NCBI GenBank assembly: GCA_041739415.1
Contig: JBGSNU010000031.1
Location: forward strand, 42,949-106,948
Source of the DNA: Bdellovibrionales bacterium
GTDB lineage: Bacteria > Bdellovibrionota > Bdellovibrionia > Bdellovibrionales > UBA1609
Length of the DNA: 64,000 bases
Reading direction: 5' to 3'
The number at the start of each line of letters is the position of its first letter. Position 1 is the first letter of the stretch. Below the pieces are notes generated by a model. That model searched no databases. It saw nothing but the letters and a program-made list of their open reading frames with translations, and was not told the DNA's origin. Shown piece after piece: positions 55,162-63,774 of the stretch. A program made the position numbers and the translations under genes.

Positions 55162-56142
55162 ATGGATCTAGGCTCCAAAGATTTAATGCCACTGCCGCTC
55201 TCGGATTTTACGAAGGGCGTACGTGTGCCTGTCGATGTCTATATTCGACTCGGCGAGGAGAACTTTGTTCTGGTTTGGAAAGCTGGAACTATCAACGATC
55301 CCGAGCAATTCAAAAATTACGAGGCAAAAGAGGTCTCGTACGTTTGGGTTCTTCGCAAGGACTACTTTAAGCTTGCCCATCAGGCAGTGTCTCTAGCGGG
55401 TGTGGCGTTATCGAACAAAGATATGGCGGACTCAAAGCGCACGGTGCTTGTGACCATGGCGGCGCGCTCATTGTTTCGGCAGGTGGAGAATCAGGGAGTA
55501 GATCTCGAGCTCTACAGCAATGCTCAGCAAGTGACCGAAGCTGTTGTGGGCTTAATGGAGACCCACAAAACTTTCGGTGATCTTTTTGCCAGCCTAGCGA
55601 CGTTCTCTGATCAGTTGCTTGCCCATTCTGTTAGCGTGTCGTTTATGAGCGTGCTTCTCGGCACCAAGCTGGGCTACGAGAAGAAGACCACGCTCGAGAA
55701 GTTGGCCCTGGCTGGCTTACTGCACGATGTCGGACTGAAAGCCCTTCCCGCCGAGCTCGTGCAAAAGCCCATGGCCAGCATGACGAGTGAGGAGATTCTC
55801 CTTTTTGAAACTCACAGTTATCGAGGTCAGCAAATGCTCACTAGCTTAGGCGTCGTGCCTGAGGACATTGTTTCGATGGTCTACGAGCACCACGAAAACT
55901 CCATTGGCCAAGGCTACCCCCAGCGCATCCGCGACGTGAAGATCCACCCCATGGCCAAGATCATCGCCCTGGCCGACGCCTACTCCACGTTGACTCTCGC
56001 CAACGTCAACTGCCCCACACCCAAGAGCCCGCGCGAAGCCATAATGCACATCGAGCACACCTTGGGGATCCCCTACAACCGTGAGGCGTTTCGCGCGCTC
56101 AAACGCATCATCGAAGGCGACGACGCCAAAAAAACGGGCTAG
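55162..56142 (+). CDS. HD-GYP domain protein (c-di-GMP phosphodiesterase family)
   Basis: AHS, LLHDVG, HHENSIGQGYP, IIALADAY. Confidence 0.88.
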   Translation: MDLGSKDLMPLPLSDFTKGVRVPVDVYIRLGEENFVLVWKAGTINDPEQFKNYEAKEVSYVWVLRKDYFKLAHQAVSLAGVALSNKDMADSKRTVLVTMAARSLFRQVENQGVDLELYSNAQQVTEAVVGLMETHKTFGDLFASLATFSDQLLAHSVSVSFMSVLLGTKLGYEKKTTLEKLALAGLLHDVGLKALPAELVQKPMASMTSEEILLFETHSYRGQQMLTSLGVVPEDIVSMVYEHHENSIGQGYPQRIRDVKIHPMAKIIALADAYSTLTLANVNCPTPKSPREAIMHIEHTLGIPYNREAFRALKRIIEGDDAKKTG

Positions 56143-56257: not shown

Positions 56258-56334
<77 letters not shown>

Positions 56335-56764: not shown

Positions 56765-58114
56765 CTACGAAATGAGCTTCATCTTTCGTTTTGATTGCTC
56801 TTTGCGTTCCTGTTCGCGGCCAATTTGTTCGTTCATGTGCGAATAGATTTGCACACTACGTTCTTCGTTATGACCCGCTACCTTTTTGGCAAGAAATCGG
56901 TTTTCATCCGTCTTGTCGTAAAACCATGTCAAGAACGTGTGACGTAGCTTGTGCGGCGATCTGAAACGGAGTTTTGCCTTATCAAAAGCCTTTTGAAGAT
57001 CGCCGTAAAACATTGAAGTCGTCAGCCCTTCAAAAAGCAGATAATCCCGCGACTCTTTACCGTGAGTTTTGTCATTCAACTTATCTTGCTGTTGATTCCA
57101 TCGTTCAACGATGATGTTCCAAGATTTCTTGTCAAAGATTGGAATGAATCGATAGCTCTCAGGCTCAATTTTTCTACGAAGCTTCAATGGCTTTCGTGGG
57201 ACTGATCCCGTATCCCAGCTAATACCAAACCTATCTTTAATTCTTTTTTCTGTCCGGAGTTTCGGCAAAGCTGGCTGACTCTCCAGGCAGATATATCCGT
57301 GATAATCTTCCAGCCCGCAAACGGCCAACTGGTTATGGAGCTTATCAAGCTTCTTGCCTTTGATTTTTCCTTCAAAAACAAAAGCGAGGCAAAGTCCCAT
57401 GGCTTCGTTCTCTCGCATTCCAGTATTTGCGAGCAAAGTAAAAAAATCGTGTGAGTCTTTTCGAATCTCCAATAGTTCATTTTGGATTTTCTCGATTTCA
57501 TCTTCCTCAAGCAAATCCGAAGCGGTGACCTGAACCATTTCACTCCGCTTGTATTGCGGACACTTCAGAATGGGTTCAGCATTTGCTTTGGATACCATTT
57601 CTAAAAATACGTTTAACGCCTTAATGATTTTGTTTTGAGTGTTGAGGCTCAACTTTTCACGATTCCATTTCAGGGGCTTAACAGTTTTCAGCCACTCTCT
57701 GAATTTCGGATAATGATAGCTCCATTCCAAGTACGTCGCAGTCTGTTTCACATCCAAAAAATAATGAAAGGCGTACTTCTCAAGATAGTAAACGTCATTC
57801 TTCCAGCTATTGGGCGCACGCTCTGTCTGGTAAGTTGCAAAGTCATCGATGAGCTTCTCGTAATTGTGGTATTTCTTTCTCCACTCCGAACGTAACTGCG
57901 CGCGATATTTCGCGGCTTGTTCAACCGCGCTTTGTGAATTGCAATATTCTTTTACTTCGTCTTCGTTGGTGCTATTGCGGATGTGCAAAGGAATAGAATC
58001 CACGCGAACAGGCTCGTACCTTTTCTTAGCTTTGTTGTAAGTCCGGAACTCCCAGCGCCAGCCATCTTGCTTGCCCGTAGCCCGATTTATTTTTTTGATT
58101 TTTGCGTACTTCAA
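56765..58114 (-). CDS. Tyrosine recombinase / integrase
   Basis: TGMRENEA (R), HKLRHTF (H-x-x-R), AGH and IY catalytic motifs; GGAGGAG SD before TTG 58114. Confidence 0.9.
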   Translation of the reverse strand: MKYAKIKKINRATGKQDGWRWEFRTYNKAKKRYEPVRVDSIPLHIRNSTNEDEVKEYCNSQSAVEQAAKYRAQLRSEWRKKYHNYEKLIDDFATYQTERAPNSWKNDVYYLEKYAFHYFLDVKQTATYLEWSYHYPKFREWLKTVKPLKWNREKLSLNTQNKIIKALNVFLEMVSKANAEPILKCPQYKRSEMVQVTASDLLEEDEIEKIQNELLEIRKDSHDFFTLLANTGMRENEAMGLCLAFVFEGKIKGKKLDKLHNQLAVCGLEDYHGYICLESQPALPKLRTEKRIKDRFGISWDTGSVPRKPLKLRRKIEPESYRFIPIFDKKSWNIIVERWNQQQDKLNDKTHGKESRDYLLFEGLTTSMFYGDLQKAFDKAKLRFRSPHKLRHTFLTWFYDKTDENRFLAKKVAGHNEERSVQIYSHMNEQIGREQERKEQSKRKMKLIS

Positions 58115-58565
58115 AAGGCACTCCTCCAAGCCAACTTTTCGGAATCACGTACGAATTGCTTGAGTTTAGGATTGGTCTGGCTCTTATGCCGCGCTTTTGA
58201 CGGTACGCCCAGCAAAATCAGAAATTACGCTATGTTTCGCGGGATCAACGTCAAATAATCCTTAGCCATAAGTCCTGCTCATTCCGTACGACCCCGGCCA
58301 TTTGTGGAGTAATTTGCTCAATAGAGCACGTGTCGTTTTTTAATAATCCACTCTCAACTTTTAATAAAATCGCCATCAAACGCCCCTCTTATTGCCGACC
58401 GTGCGCCTTTAAATGGCCTTGGTTCGCCCGTGGTTGCATTTTTGGGGGCCAAACCTTGCAAGAAACCATATCAGGCAACATCGTGGCCTTAAAAGCAGAA
58501 CATTGAGATTATTAAAAATCACTCTGTCGCAGTAGTAATCTTGCATCTGCTGTTACATTTAAAAA

Positions 58566-61442
58566 TTATTTTCCTAAGAACAACTCGCTACAACTCTTAC
58601 CGGCAGCGCCCGAAGGCTTAGATGACTTCGTAGGAGCCGTTGTAATTGGAATAACTGGAGCCTCAGCTTTCAGCCTTGCAGCAATACCATAATTTGAATC
58701 ACGGTAAATTTCTGCGCTGTGATTACCGGTCAAGCCATTGCCGTCGCGGATTTGCTTTGCAATTGCATCCATCCGAACCTGCAAAACTTCTTGTACACGT
58801 TGCGAGTTAACTTCTTGACGGCCCGCTTGCATCACCTGAGCTAATACTTGAACACCAAGTTTAAAAAAGTCCGCTCTACTAACGGTCTTTCGCAAGTTAT
58901 CCAACATTGCAGGACCATAATACAACAACAGAGCGGGATCGCCTTTGAAGCCAGTCGCAGAGAACTCGCGTTCTAAAATAGATCGCTCGTTCGCTGGAAG
59001 CTTTTGTATAGCCTGGAATAACTCTTCACCGTCGGCTGCTGTTTGGCAACGGAACATTAGGCCAACGCGAGTCATCCAAAGCGGACGACTTCCATCAGGC
59101 ATTATGCTTGAACTTCTTTGACGAAGAAACTCTTGGTAAGTTGCTTTTATAGATTCCTCTGTATTTGCCATGCCCTCAATGCCACCCATCGCCGTTCTAA
59201 TCCCGGCATAGGTCGGTTCAGTTAGCACCAGCGAGCCATTGATGTTATCTTGGCCACGGGCGGCAGCAATTTTCAAAATTGACGTCGCCAAGTAAAAGTC
59301 TCGCGCGTCTTTTGAGCGATTGGCATGTTCTTTCAAAAGTCTGGCCGGAGCTTCGCCTTGCGCAAGCTGCGCGAGGTTAAATTCTTTTTCAAAACTGTTA
59401 ACAACCATCTGCCTTTGGAATTCGTCGAGACGCTGGTAGGTCGGCGAAATGAATGGATAAAGTTTTAGCAGTTCAGACATAACACGTTGGTGATTTGTCT
59501 CCTGAATGCCAGATGATTTTTTGAGGTACGAAATCGCAGCTTCCGATTTTCCTATATTGTTAAAAATTAAAAATGAAAACAATGCGTCTCGCATAGACGG
59601 ATTGAACGCCACTCGCCGAACAAGTTTCGAAATTTCTAAAAATGACTCTCGGCTCAGTTTAATATTTTCGGGTTGCCCATGAACGAAACCGTCGTAATCG
59701 CCCGCGATAAGCCGCTTGAACAATAATAAGGCGGCGATGGTGCGATCAAACTCAGGATATGGTTTATTGAACAACGACGTGGCTAAGGATTGCTCCAAAG
59801 CTTGGGGTACTGAACCAACTTGCTTTGGGTAAGTCGCTTCATTTTTAGAACCGAGCCAGCCAAGCTCAGGCGTCAAAGATACGCGTTCAGTTGTAGATAC
59901 CAATTTAGCGGCGATAGCCTCAGGAGTAGCAACCACGCCCTCTGTTAACAAAATCAATTCCGGATAAGATTCCAAGACCACACGAATCAACTCTTGATCA
60001 GTGACGCTTTCAACGCGTCGGTAGAGGTCTCTTAACTTACGAGTACGGCTTTCGTATTTTCTTTGGATCGCAGGAATTTCTAATCCTCGCACCAAACGCA
60101 ACGGCCCGCGTTTATAACCCATGTTTTCAAATTTCTTTGTTGGGTCCGAATCAAAACGAGGATCTCTCGTAAGTTGTAAAGCAACTGCTTCTGTTTCTGG
60201 ATCAAGTCCAATATCTCTGACCAACACCACAGGAACTTGCTTTGTTAACGCGGACTGAATAATGCCTGCGTCTTTTGCCTCTCCTCGCAAAGCAACGACC
60301 TCGATTTTCTGTTTCAGCTCGTTATCCGAAAATATTGAATCAACGGCATTATCGGCAGCGATAACAACTAAATCCTTACGAGTTGGATTTTTGGCAAGTT
60401 CCGCGGCAATCCAATCGCGTGCGCGGCCCACACCTTCCTGATGAGTCAAAACAAACAATGTGTCGGAACTATATGTTGATGTGATTTGATCGACGTATGA
60501 CTTCAAGAGGGAAAAGTCTTCGTATCCGAGGCGGCCATATCCAGCAAGTACGACAGTTCGCCGATGACCTCGCGTCAGCGACATCAATTCCGAGGAAGAT
60601 GACAATTCAACATGGGTCGATTTTTGGATAGCCAACCCAAGCTGTCCGGTAAGGTCAAAATGTGTCGGCACTTTTTTGCCTCGAACTTGAACTGACTTTA
60701 CCGCAGGAGAAATTCCATTCTCGATTTCTAAAGTTAAGTCCGCATAGGCTGATAAGTATTCAACTGATTCACGAACTCCGGAGGACATTTTAATAACGAG
60801 GTCTCTTGGCACAAATCGCCCGGTTACTTTGCCTCGTGCTTCCACTCGCTGCAGCAGAATTTCTTCGGGCGCATTAACTGAAATAATTGAAATGGCATAC
60901 TCTGGGTGGGATTGGCGGATGCGACGAAATTCAGAAACCCACCAGTCTTTTCCTAAAAGTGTTCCATCAACAATGATATTCTTTTTTGAACGTAGGGCTT
61001 GCTCAAAAAGTTCCTCTTGAATATGGCCTGATTCACGATGAACGAGTGACGCCGCATCTTCGGGCTTCGTCTGCTTTAGATCTTTGTATTCGGGAATATC
61101 TTCTTTGATTGCATCGGGATCGATCCAGATGAACCTTGATACGTCCAAAAGGTCGAGTTTTTCTAATGCAGACGCGACAAATGATTTTCCAGCTCCGGCG
61201 GGACCGGCAGTAAAAATAAGACGTGGCTTTTCATCTGAAGCCCCAGCCTGCATTCTAACGTCGACAATTTTTTTATGAAGCGCAGCCCGCAGTGGAAGGT
61301 AAGTAAATTGCCATTGACCGGTTTGGGTAGCGTATTGCGACGCTGTATCTTGCGCATCAGCAGCAAATGAAAAAGCAGAAGACACCACAATAAGTGCGAA
61401 GAGAAAGTGTCTTGCCTGCTTTTTTAAAACTGCCAAAGCCAT
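58566..61442 (-). CDS. Secreted multidomain protein: Zeta-toxin-like P-loop kinase + SLOG-like region + degenerate HD-like (DUF6829-like) domain
   Basis: Signal peptide; GPAGAGKS, IDPD, VDGT, RxxxRxxxTGRFVP; aa ~483-925 align with the N-terminal half of the upstream gene. Confidence 0.75.
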   Translation of the reverse strand: MALAVLKKQARHFLFALIVVSSAFSFAADAQDTASQYATQTGQWQFTYLPLRAALHKKIVDVRMQAGASDEKPRLIFTAGPAGAGKSFVASALEKLDLLDVSRFIWIDPDAIKEDIPEYKDLKQTKPEDAASLVHRESGHIQEELFEQALRSKKNIIVDGTLLGKDWWVSEFRRIRQSHPEYAISIISVNAPEEILLQRVEARGKVTGRFVPRDLVIKMSSGVRESVEYLSAYADLTLEIENGISPAVKSVQVRGKKVPTHFDLTGQLGLAIQKSTHVELSSSSELMSLTRGHRRTVVLAGYGRLGYEDFSLLKSYVDQITSTYSSDTLFVLTHQEGVGRARDWIAAELAKNPTRKDLVVIAADNAVDSIFSDNELKQKIEVVALRGEAKDAGIIQSALTKQVPVVLVRDIGLDPETEAVALQLTRDPRFDSDPTKKFENMGYKRGPLRLVRGLEIPAIQRKYESRTRKLRDLYRRVESVTDQELIRVVLESYPELILLTEGVVATPEAIAAKLVSTTERVSLTPELGWLGSKNEATYPKQVGSVPQALEQSLATSLFNKPYPEFDRTIAALLLFKRLIAGDYDGFVHGQPENIKLSRESFLEISKLVRRVAFNPSMRDALFSFLIFNNIGKSEAAISYLKKSSGIQETNHQRVMSELLKLYPFISPTYQRLDEFQRQMVVNSFEKEFNLAQLAQGEAPARLLKEHANRSKDARDFYLATSILKIAAARGQDNINGSLVLTEPTYAGIRTAMGGIEGMANTEESIKATYQEFLRQRSSSIMPDGSRPLWMTRVGLMFRCQTAADGEELFQAIQKLPANERSILEREFSATGFKGDPALLLYYGPAMLDNLRKTVSRADFFKLGVQVLAQVMQAGRQEVNSQRVQEVLQVRMDAIAKQIRDGNGLTGNHSAEIYRDSNYGIAARLKAEAPVIPITTAPTKSSKPSGAAGKSCSELFLGK

Positions 61443-61452
61443 ACCTAACTTC

Positions 61453-63774
61453 CTATCTTGAAATCGCGGCTAAATGATCTGCTACGTTCATAAAGAAGAT
61501 TCCCGCCATGCTTTGATCAACATGCACAAACGGATTCCATGGATTTCTTCCGTCAACCACCACGCGAGAAGGGATCGGAAGAACTTGAAGGCCTAATTGG
61601 CCGGTCAAAGCGCGTTGCCATGTCAGCGGCGTTTTTCCAAAACGCGCATCGTTGGCTCCGGTCATGTCCCATTTTGTATAATTCTGGAGAACCTGCGTTG
61701 ATTGAGTTTGATTAAGTTGAAAATATCTGGCTCCCGCAGAACCTAAGATCGCGCTGGCATTATTCGGAGAATCAATCCCGGCAGCAACAATCGTCGAAAT
61801 TTTATTTTGAACCGGCACTTCGCCGATAGCCGACAACACTCTTAAATCTTGGTCTGGGGTCGATTTTGCGCTGTTGAGTTGAGACGATGCTTTGATGGGA
61901 TAAAGAGCGTCGCCGCCCGTATCCACTGTGATAATCGTATCCACTCCTCGGAGCTGTTGGTTCAAAGAATTAAGTTGTCCAACCAAAGTGCCGTTCTGGC
62001 GATCCATAACCAAAAACATTGGGACTTCGTCACTCGGAAGATTTTCGAGAAACCTTCCGCTTCCAGTTGTTTGCGGCAAGATTCTATAAGTGCCACTTAC
62101 AATTTCGCCGCCGTGCTGCGAAACGGTTCTATCTTCTCCGTCACGTCCACTAACACCTTGAGACGCGGTCTTCTCTGTTCTTACAGAGGCAACATAAACA
62201 AGTTCTTTACCAGCATTTTTCAGAAGTAACCCAAGTTGCGCCGCTTGTATTCCATCTGAACCGCCACCTATTCCTATTACGGCAACGCGATGGCCCGGAA
62301 TCTCTGATAAACTGTTGAGTGGTGTGAATTTGGCTGAGTCAATAACCTGTCGGTCAACTAATTTTGCTTCGCCATCTTTCGCAACAAGATCAATTTCAAT
62401 TTTCTTTTGAACTAACTGCTCTGGAGTTTTTCCGGCCTCAGCGATTTTTGAAATCAAAAGCGTGAAGACGCCATCGCCGTTGCGACCTTTAATTGTTACT
62501 CTCGCTTCTTGATAAAGTTGCGCAAGAGTCGTAAGGCCCAATTGAATGCCTGCATGCTCACTTAAAATTGTTGGATTTGCCTTTGAATAAGCAAGGATAT
62601 TTGAAAGCAAAGCTGGCGAATAATAGAGTAGCGTTCCGTATCCGTCGCCAGTGCCGTTGATGTTCATTTCTTTAACTAAGATGGCCTTTGTATTTTGAGA
62701 AAGGCTGTCAAATGCGGCCGTGATTTTCGATGCCGTGTTCGTGTCTGATACGCGCATCATAGTTAATAAACGCGTTAATGCACGTTCTCGCGGAACTTCA
62801 ACCCGCAAACCAAAAGGACGTCCTTTTTCAGATAAGAAGTAGTTGTAAACATCAACTTCAGAGCGGCCCTGTGCTAAACTTTCGATAGCTTTAATACCAA
62901 GTTTGAATCCGTCGTATGTCGGATTAGACATGACGACTGAGCCCTCCCAATTAACATGGCCTGCGGCTCCGCCAATGTCTGCGACGGCGTGAAGCAAATA
63001 GAAATCAAGACTTTCTTTATCTAAGCCCTTTAAGCCAGAAAGGCTCGCGGCAAGGTTTTCGCCTTGAATGAACTGACCGATGTTGAACTTCGGTCTCAGT
63101 CCCCGGATCATTTTCTGCTGGGTCGCAGGAGATAATCGAGCAAAACTTGGTGAAAGGTCAGGATGGTTTTCTAAAGCGATAAGCAAAAGGTTATCGTGAT
63201 CGACGTCTTTAATGCCTGCGCGCTTTTCAATTTCGCCGACAATGGACTTAATTTTTCCGAGGTCGTTGATCACCATGTATGTAATCATGGCGTCAATATC
63301 TTCCGGAGTTTTGAGGATTGAGCGAGTGTAAGCTCGGAGTTCATTAAAATTTTCACGGGTCATTTTAACTGCCGCGTTCTGGGGTTTTGTGAAAGCGTCG
63401 TAGTTGCCTTCAAGAATCCATTTGATAAGCAGGATTCCCGTCGCAGTTCGATCAAACTCAATGTGCTTTTCGCCAAACATTTTTTCCGAAAGTGATAGGA
63501 CTTTATCTGATGTTGCCTTGCCTTCAGGTGTCGCATTTACTTTTCCCGTTAGCCATGCAAGTTCGGGATACTGAACCAACGACATTCGGACTACTTCGAT
63601 GGGATCGTTAGTGGCAAAAAACTTCCTGACAAAGGACTTCGGATTAGTAGGCATTGCCTTCTCACTTCGGGCGCCGGCGTTTAGGAAAAGGTCTTGGCAA
63701 GACATTGCATGGGCATGAGGGAGGCTCATGGACAATGACAAAAAAAGGATAGCAACTGTTGAACTTTTAGACAT
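61453..63774 (-). CDS. Secreted two-domain protein: HD-like (DUF6829-like) domain + DUF1152-like domain
   Basis: GGGAG SD; signal peptide ending AHA; EFDRT, NDLGK, DHD and HAVAD motifs; C-terminal GIGGGSD, VDTGGD and GIDSP. Confidence 0.75.
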   Translation of the reverse strand: MSKSSTVAILFLSLSMSLPHAHAMSCQDLFLNAGARSEKAMPTNPKSFVRKFFATNDPIEVVRMSLVQYPELAWLTGKVNATPEGKATSDKVLSLSEKMFGEKHIEFDRTATGILLIKWILEGNYDAFTKPQNAAVKMTRENFNELRAYTRSILKTPEDIDAMITYMVINDLGKIKSIVGEIEKRAGIKDVDHDNLLLIALENHPDLSPSFARLSPATQQKMIRGLRPKFNIGQFIQGENLAASLSGLKGLDKESLDFYLLHAVADIGGAAGHVNWEGSVVMSNPTYDGFKLGIKAIESLAQGRSEVDVYNYFLSEKGRPFGLRVEVPRERALTRLLTMMRVSDTNTASKITAAFDSLSQNTKAILVKEMNINGTGDGYGTLLYYSPALLSNILAYSKANPTILSEHAGIQLGLTTLAQLYQEARVTIKGRNGDGVFTLLISKIAEAGKTPEQLVQKKIEIDLVAKDGEAKLVDRQVIDSAKFTPLNSLSEIPGHRVAVIGIGGGSDGIQAAQLGLLLKNAGKELVYVASVRTEKTASQGVSGRDGEDRTVSQHGGEIVSGTYRILPQTTGSGRFLENLPSDEVPMFLVMDRQNGTLVGQLNSLNQQLRGVDTIITVDTGGDALYPIKASSQLNSAKSTPDQDLRVLSAIGEVPVQNKISTIVAAGIDSPNNASAILGSAGARYFQLNQTQSTQVLQNYTKWDMTGANDARFGKTPLTWQRALTGQLGLQVLPIPSRVVVDGRNPWNPFVHVDQSMAGIFFMNVADHLAAISR

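Follow-up and report, generated by a model that had tools for sequence, protein, structure and literature searches.

Why would a domain that has lost its acidic, enzyme-like site be kept, fused to a kinase, next to a gene carrying the same domain intact? This question is raised by two adjacent genes in a 64,000-nucleotide stretch (hereafter the window) of contig JBGSNU010000031.1 from a Bdellovibrionales bacterium. Gene B (61453-63774, minus strand, as for every feature of both genes; 773 residues) encodes a signal-peptide-like start, an intact DUF6829 domain (residues 44-478; 62341-63645) and a DUF1152-like domain. It ends 10 bases upstream of gene A (58566-61442; 958 residues), with which it forms an operon, and A joins a signal-peptide-like start, a zeta-family kinase, a Rossmann-like (SLOG-like) middle domain and a degenerate DUF6829 domain (residues 478-928; 58659-60011). 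The family profile PF20717 scores 142.5 bits on A and 248.3 bits on B, against a Pfam gathering cut-off of 27, and these are the sole DUF6829 genes of the host genome. A first-pass annotation of the span 58668-59996, which is A residues 483-925 and lies inside the DUF6829 region, had proposed that B is the active hydrolase and that the copy in A is a catalytically dead module for ligand sensing or dimerisation, one that may control the fused kinase.

Replaced residues in the DUF6829 domain of A

BLASTP aligns A with B at 29% identity over 407 columns (E 1e-51), with the motif residues in register. Every residue quoted in the first-pass annotation is at its given position: N170-D171-L-G-K174, D192-H193-D194, H262, D266 and H273 in B, and N628-N629-I-G-K632, N650-H651-Q652, T720, K724 and Q731 in A. 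We aligned the best 150 of 1005 matches to B, together with the A-type matches, onto the domain profile, a sample biased toward B-like sequences; this gave 176 domain rows, 143 of which span the three key motifs, and setting aside multi-domain rows and A-types left 107 single-domain relatives. D171 is conserved in 106 of these, D192 in 103, H193 in 106, D194 in 105, H262 in 88 and D266 in all 107. The expected invariance of the putative ligands holds for the four aspartates (96-100%), with H262 at 82%, but fails at position 273, which is variable (H in 67, Q in 18, A in 11).

All five A-type proteins (P0001, P0003, P0004, P0113 and P0157) have Asn or Gln at position 171 (N629 in A; 59556-59558), Asn, His and Gln at 192 to 194 (N650-H651-Q652; 59487-59495), and Thr at 262 with Lys at 266 (T720-x3-K724; 59271-59285), so that Lys724 occupies a likely metal position. 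Six Asp/His replacements had been claimed; five are systematic (D171, D192, D194, H262 and D266), while His is retained at 273 in three of the five proteins, and the loss of six ligands is ruled out. Among 35 columns conserved at 85% or more, the four lost in all five A-types are exactly the Asp columns 171, 192, 194 and 266 (Fisher p∼1e-4, for columns that are not independent). Each of the remaining 31, 30 of which are neither Asp nor His, is kept in at least one A-type, and H193 is kept throughout: the scaffold around the replacements is conserved, as proposed. Other pocket residues are also retained in A (E564, R567, K632, H651, Q695, E697 and Y843), and the replacements are fixed in the five proteins down to 35% domain identity. 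The HD-like helix arrangement of the models suggests that the five replaced residues cluster in three dimensions.

The structure models, built on full-length chains, have a mean predicted local distance difference test score of 82.5 for A (38 sequences) and 93.5 for B (102 sequences), and show the same helices across the shared domain. Locus L012 in another genome, G248, carries B and a copy of A that is 94% identical. Between the two copies, the DUF6829 domain of A is under purifying selection like that of B, with ratios of nonsynonymous to synonymous substitution (dN/dS) of 0.034 and 0.028; the corresponding values are 0.015 for the kinase, 0.017 for the C-terminal domain of B and 0.099 for the middle domain of A (residues 278-460; 60063-60611), which is possibly a shortened SLOG domain and is the least conserved region of the protein. 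In a FastTree phylogeny of 140 rows, the trait's own columns included, the five A domains form one clade (support 99) whose neighbours exclude B; therefore A was not copied from B, and a tandem duplication of B is ruled out. The proposal of a dead module is thus borne out, on sequence grounds, as a conserved, folded, pseudo-enzyme-like domain with its acidic site removed, and this domain is very probably hydrolase-dead and metal-free.

Degeneration of this kind recurs in DUF6829. Positions 171, 262 and 266 are all occupied in 148 rows, which are not independent of one another; D266 is missing from 28 of these rows, and 27 of the 28 also lack D171. Lys or Arg stands at 262 or 266 in 18 of the 28, compared with 2 of the 120 rows that have D266, and at eight neighbouring control positions in only 0-2 of the 28. 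The degenerate rows keep K174 (or Arg) in 25 cases, E239 in 26 and Q237 in 19, and they occupy distinct places in the phylogeny, namely the A clade, the middle repeat of P0066 (a protein from a eukaryote collection) and a clade of repeats from large proteins. In P0034 an intact copy is accompanied by a degenerate one that lacks the basic residue. Judged from these sequence patterns, ligand binding is favoured over dimerisation, both by the pocket residues that A retains and by the repeated appearance of Lys/Arg at the metal position. The large proteins that we scanned carry kinase-like TCAD9, NACHT or ankyrin domains before two or three DUF6829 repeats, and resemble NLR-type receptors whose sensor region is new. 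C-terminal repeats that mix intact and degenerate copies are seen in P0066, P0072, P0094, P0098, P0110, P0121, P0129, P0142, P0144, P0150 and P0151.

HD-like features of DUF6829 and the activity of B

The motifs of B had been likened to the metal sites of the HD superfamily, and this likeness holds in part. The best fold match is 3wfo, an A-adding enzyme. In DUF6829, as in the HD domains of GlnD (uridylyl-removing) and of class II CCA/A-adding enzymes, D-x-G-K is followed by His and that in turn by a late-helix Asp. This last residue, the metal Asp of motif V, is D266 in B and in 107 of 107 relatives, aligned to the Asp of GlnD-like and CCA enzymes; in A it is K724. DUF6829 differs from these HD domains in having Arg and mostly Asn at the histidine positions, extra D-H-D and H-x3-D motifs, and ∼150 more C-terminal residues.

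Several observations weigh against the assignment. HD enzymes have two histidines, including the first metal histidine of motif I, and B lacks both. At the motif I position, in a register set by eye, there is Arg instead (R109 in B, R567 in A, and Arg in 100 of 107 relatives), and the His-Asp doublet is Asn-Asp in B and Asn-Asn in A, with position 170 being N in 79 relatives and H in 19, so that His-Asp occurs in ∼19 of 107. Pfam HD-clan models match neither A nor B, even with E allowed to reach 1, and Cas3_HD matches 3 of 25 relatives below its cut-off (E 1e-4 to 4e-3). A profile-profile test against HD families used small Bdellovibrionota templates (18 GlnD-like and 11 CCA-type), and its value of 27% is rough because the wrong motif served as the anchor in some GlnD-like slices. 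DUF6829 sequence searches of solved structures found nothing, and Foldseek, run on the whole B model, gave no match in the PDB at E 0.001 and two DUF1152 proteins only in the viral library. We hold the HD assignment with moderate confidence: the motif order fits and the predicted fold appears to, while the canonical histidines are missing in B. B is likely an active hydrolase, judging from its intact motifs, but the case is weaker than first stated because Arg109 and Asn170 stand at the HD histidine positions. Separately, GlnD-like proteins of ∼710-820 residues, all below the TIGR01693 cut-off, occur in Bdellovibrionales (G000:C39:138001-140055, which is L030; loci L018-L035) and represent a shortened GlnD relative.

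The C-terminal domain of B (residues 485-773; 61456-62322) has invariant acidic residues of its own (D507, D618, D643 and D668, in 69 of 69 relatives) and a PIG-L/LmbE-like fold. PIG-L/LmbE deacetylases carry an H-x-D-D zinc motif after the first strand; it was not found in this domain, where a glycine-rich stretch, G-x-G-G-G-S-D, occupies the same place and is invariant or nearly so in the 69 relatives. The motifs may resemble those of NAD(P)HX epimerase, which is absent from the fold-match lists, and an Atlas search with this domain gave no usable match.

A proposed role for the degenerate domain

What, then, could the degenerate domain do for the kinase? The kinase (residues 30-265; 60648-61355) belongs to the zeta toxin family (PF06414) by profile score, fold and catalytic residues. 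The Walker A Lys (K86), the catalytic Asp (D110, aligned to Asp66 of PezT) and T161 are kept in all five A-types (Thr or Ser at 161), in keeping with an intact kinase. A classical epsilon/zeta (PezAT) module is ruled out: a small antitoxin gene was not found upstream, where the 773-residue B stands instead, A has a signal-peptide-like start, and PADLOC matches neither A nor B. The PezT model scores 18 bits on A against a cut-off of 470, and NCBIfam gave two weak sub-cut-off matches, for A only. A plasmid search matched only the kinase part of A, and a search for shorter proteins like its N-terminal half returned one generic zeta-like protein. A zeta-family kinase gene 30% identical to this kinase (L016:7620-10762) immediately follows a phage portal-like gene, in what looks like a cluster of head genes.

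We give about an even chance to the reading that A combines an intact zeta-family kinase with a metal-free DUF6829 pseudo-enzyme that binds a phosphorylated, nucleotide-like ligand and so tunes or feeds the kinase. The intact domain, as in B, would be a non-canonical HD-type metal phosphohydrolase using D171, H193, D194, H262 and D266. In A, the amides would remove negative charge and Lys724 would replace the metal, allowing the pocket to hold a phosphate that it does not cleave. Binding would be coupled to the kinase, by analogy with the RelA pseudo-hydrolase that controls its synthetase. Both proteins would be exported, with nucleotides or nucleotide sugars inside prey or rivals as their targets, because a kinase in the periplasm would lack ATP.

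The domain may instead be a docking module, pairing with the DUF6829 domain of B or with itself in a kinase-hydrolase complex, its pocket empty; we consider this unlikely, yet worth weighing. The two genes lie in one operon and travel together, and intact and degenerate copies stand in tandem in single chains (P0034 and eukaryotic proteins), which shows that DUF6829 domains can adjoin. A surface role, however, would not need the buried R567, K632, H651, Q695 and E697 and the new N/Q/T/K to be fixed, and B-types mostly occur without A. In overlapping sets of genomes, PF20717 matched 7 of the 109 from the family, 10 of the 384 from the order and 8 of the 401 sampled across the phylum. Among the genomes examined, A and B occur together only in the host (G000) and G248, in counts covering genomic neighbourhoods other than those of P0003, P0004, P0113 and P0157. 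B-types without an A-type are found in G011, G021, G033 (split in two frames), G034, G118, G197, G223, G357 (partial) and G681, several of these genomes being incomplete, and in G050 an A fragment broken by a frameshift lies next to the remains of an integrase, with no B. All loci seen with both genes are near-copies of one cassette. A view of A and B as a duplicated, obligate pair is contradicted by the separate A clade and by the B-types that lack A in most genomes having DUF6829.

Improbable, in our judgement, is that the whole family binds and does not cut, B through a metal bridge and A directly or with another ligand, leaving no contrast between enzyme and pseudo-enzyme. The absence of both canonical HD histidines from most members fits such a picture, as do the frequent fusions to other enzymes (DUF1152, or a DSP phosphatase in P0087), a possible source of chemistry; but five near-invariant Asp/His residues with invariant E, R, K and Q look like an active site, and many members are stand-alone domains of 400-500 residues. 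We think it equally doubtful that the domain in A is a rewired, metal-independent enzyme using K724, H651 and E697 on the substrate or product of the kinase. Its replacements are fixed under strong purifying selection and include a Lys and a retained His; against this, catalytic loss is what isosteric Asp-to-amide swaps usually signal, and other degenerate copies arrive at Lys/Arg along different paths while H193 varies, a pattern that fits charge compensation better than a single new mechanism. Despite the broken A fragment in G050 and a divergence between distant A-types faster than that of the kinase (35-68% against 50-74% identity), a decaying, functionless remnant is scarcely credible and is ruled out by dN/dS, because the fold is kept under purifying selection, with the same replacements in five proteins and the scaffold columns intact.

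Mobile setting and comparison with known systems

Downstream of gene A are a tyrosine integrase (56765-58129, minus strand; PF00589, E 5.8e-11) and a tRNA-Met(CAT) (56258-56334, plus strand), the likely integration site, and the contig ends ∼1.2 kb past the window, short of the far end of the island. The G+C content is 44.9% after the tRNA and 51.5% in the rest of the contig. An ordinary HD-GYP-type gene (55162-56142; HD_5, E 2.8e-22) adjoins the tRNA, in host DNA just outside the island. Just past the window is a 296-residue helix-turn-helix/replication-like open reading frame (G000:C41:107149-108039) that travels with the B-A cassette (L012:6376-7254). In G248, which belongs to a different family, a 6.7 kb block of this open reading frame, B and A, at 87% DNA identity, sits inside a ∼20 kb island at tRNA-Gly that has another integrase, an AbiEi/AbiEii pair and a likely attachment repeat. 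Because the block lies in a different island there, we conclude that the cassette moves as a unit on tRNA-integrated islands in two Bdellovibrionales families. The AbiEi/AbiEii type IV toxin-antitoxin pair (L012:13179-14635) is directly downstream of A in G248; the window has no such pair at the corresponding site. Neither B nor P0157 had a relative among viral contigs, and promoter and terminator scans stayed at chance level.

Two further DUF6829 loci differ from this cassette. In G223 (L057:937-3755), immediately upstream of a B-type gene, there is a divergent stand-alone DUF6829 gene that retains the aspartates and has a His-Asp doublet and Lys at 262, which makes another kind of two-gene arrangement; and in G234 a B-like protein (L056:1-2772) has DUF6829 and DUF1152-like motifs that both look degenerate.

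Proteins A and B both start like signal peptides, which suggests export. In A the predicted signal peptide, read by eye, is residues 1-28 (61359-61442), and all five A-types have a hydrophobic N-terminus (hydropathy 2.55-3.15). A also ends in a Cys-x-x-Leu-Phe tag (58569-58598); a Cys near the C-terminus is present in all five A-types, and a similar Cys-x-x-hydrophobic-(Leu/Phe) tag follows the signal peptide of B (63682-63702). In the host genome, the tag occurs in the last 20 residues of 14 of 522 open reading frames with a signal-like start, compared with 3 of the same 522 when a mid-protein window is counted instead, and with 8 of the 1594 remaining open reading frames. The tag may serve to sort exported proteins in these predators; a literature search found no description of it.

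A broader and quite tentative proposal, which we think unlikely to hold as a whole, is that DUF6829 is an undescribed HD-like phosphohydrolase family repeatedly made into a sensor by a Lys/Arg-for-metal swap. B-A would then be a mobile, exported writer-eraser pair of predatory Bdellovibrionota, in which the kinase of A makes a phosphorylated nucleotide, its dead domain reads that product as feedback and B removes it, and the same dead domains would form the ligand-reading end of eukaryotic NLR-like receptors. If so, the recurrent swap would be a clean example of an HD-type enzyme turned receptor, and it would indicate what class of ligand a set of unstudied eukaryotic NLR-like proteins recognises. 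The locus itself offers a natural comparison between a presumably live copy and a dead one, which singles out the residues of DUF6829 that are likely catalytic and opens its chemistry to test: a ligand processed by B could be captured by the domain of A. The effectors of Bdellovibrionota are little known, and an exported kinase of zeta type, carried on mobile islands of these predators, would enlarge their set.

The literature searched does not name DUF6829 or DUF1152 and offers nothing on the B-A system, PMC10532202 included. A shares with zeta/PezT toxins and AvrRxo1 the kinase fold, Walker A lysine, catalytic Asp and conserved Thr, but at only 13-17% structural identity and without an epsilon-type antitoxin, and it has three parts that zeta/PezT lack: the signal-peptide-like start, the Rossmann-like domain and the pseudo-DUF6829. 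Like the two-gene secreted effector systems described in Bdellovibrionota (CapCone-2; bioRxiv 10.1101/2025.01.14.632903), B-A is found in predatory bacteria and pairs neighbouring genes whose products are enzymes predicted to be secreted; its domains differ from those of CapCone-2, which are lipid-targeting Lipocone systems. HD-Pnk of Runella slithyformis (PMC6097658) joins an HD-type domain and a P-loop kinase in one chain, as A does, with both active. The closest precedent is the RelA/SpoT homologues (PMC8012599), where an inactive HD domain is fused to an active nucleotide-modifying enzyme and regulates the RelA synthetase. A resembles RelA in joining a probably inactive HD-like domain to an enzyme with an intact site, and differs in its zeta-family kinase partner, its much larger C-terminal DUF6829 domain and its signal-peptide-like start; regulation in A would follow by analogy. 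A pseudo-hydrolase controlling a fused enzyme is an already known kind of arrangement, which weighs against the significance of the present one; what would be new here is its proposed occurrence in an unstudied family, DUF6829, with a zeta-like kinase.
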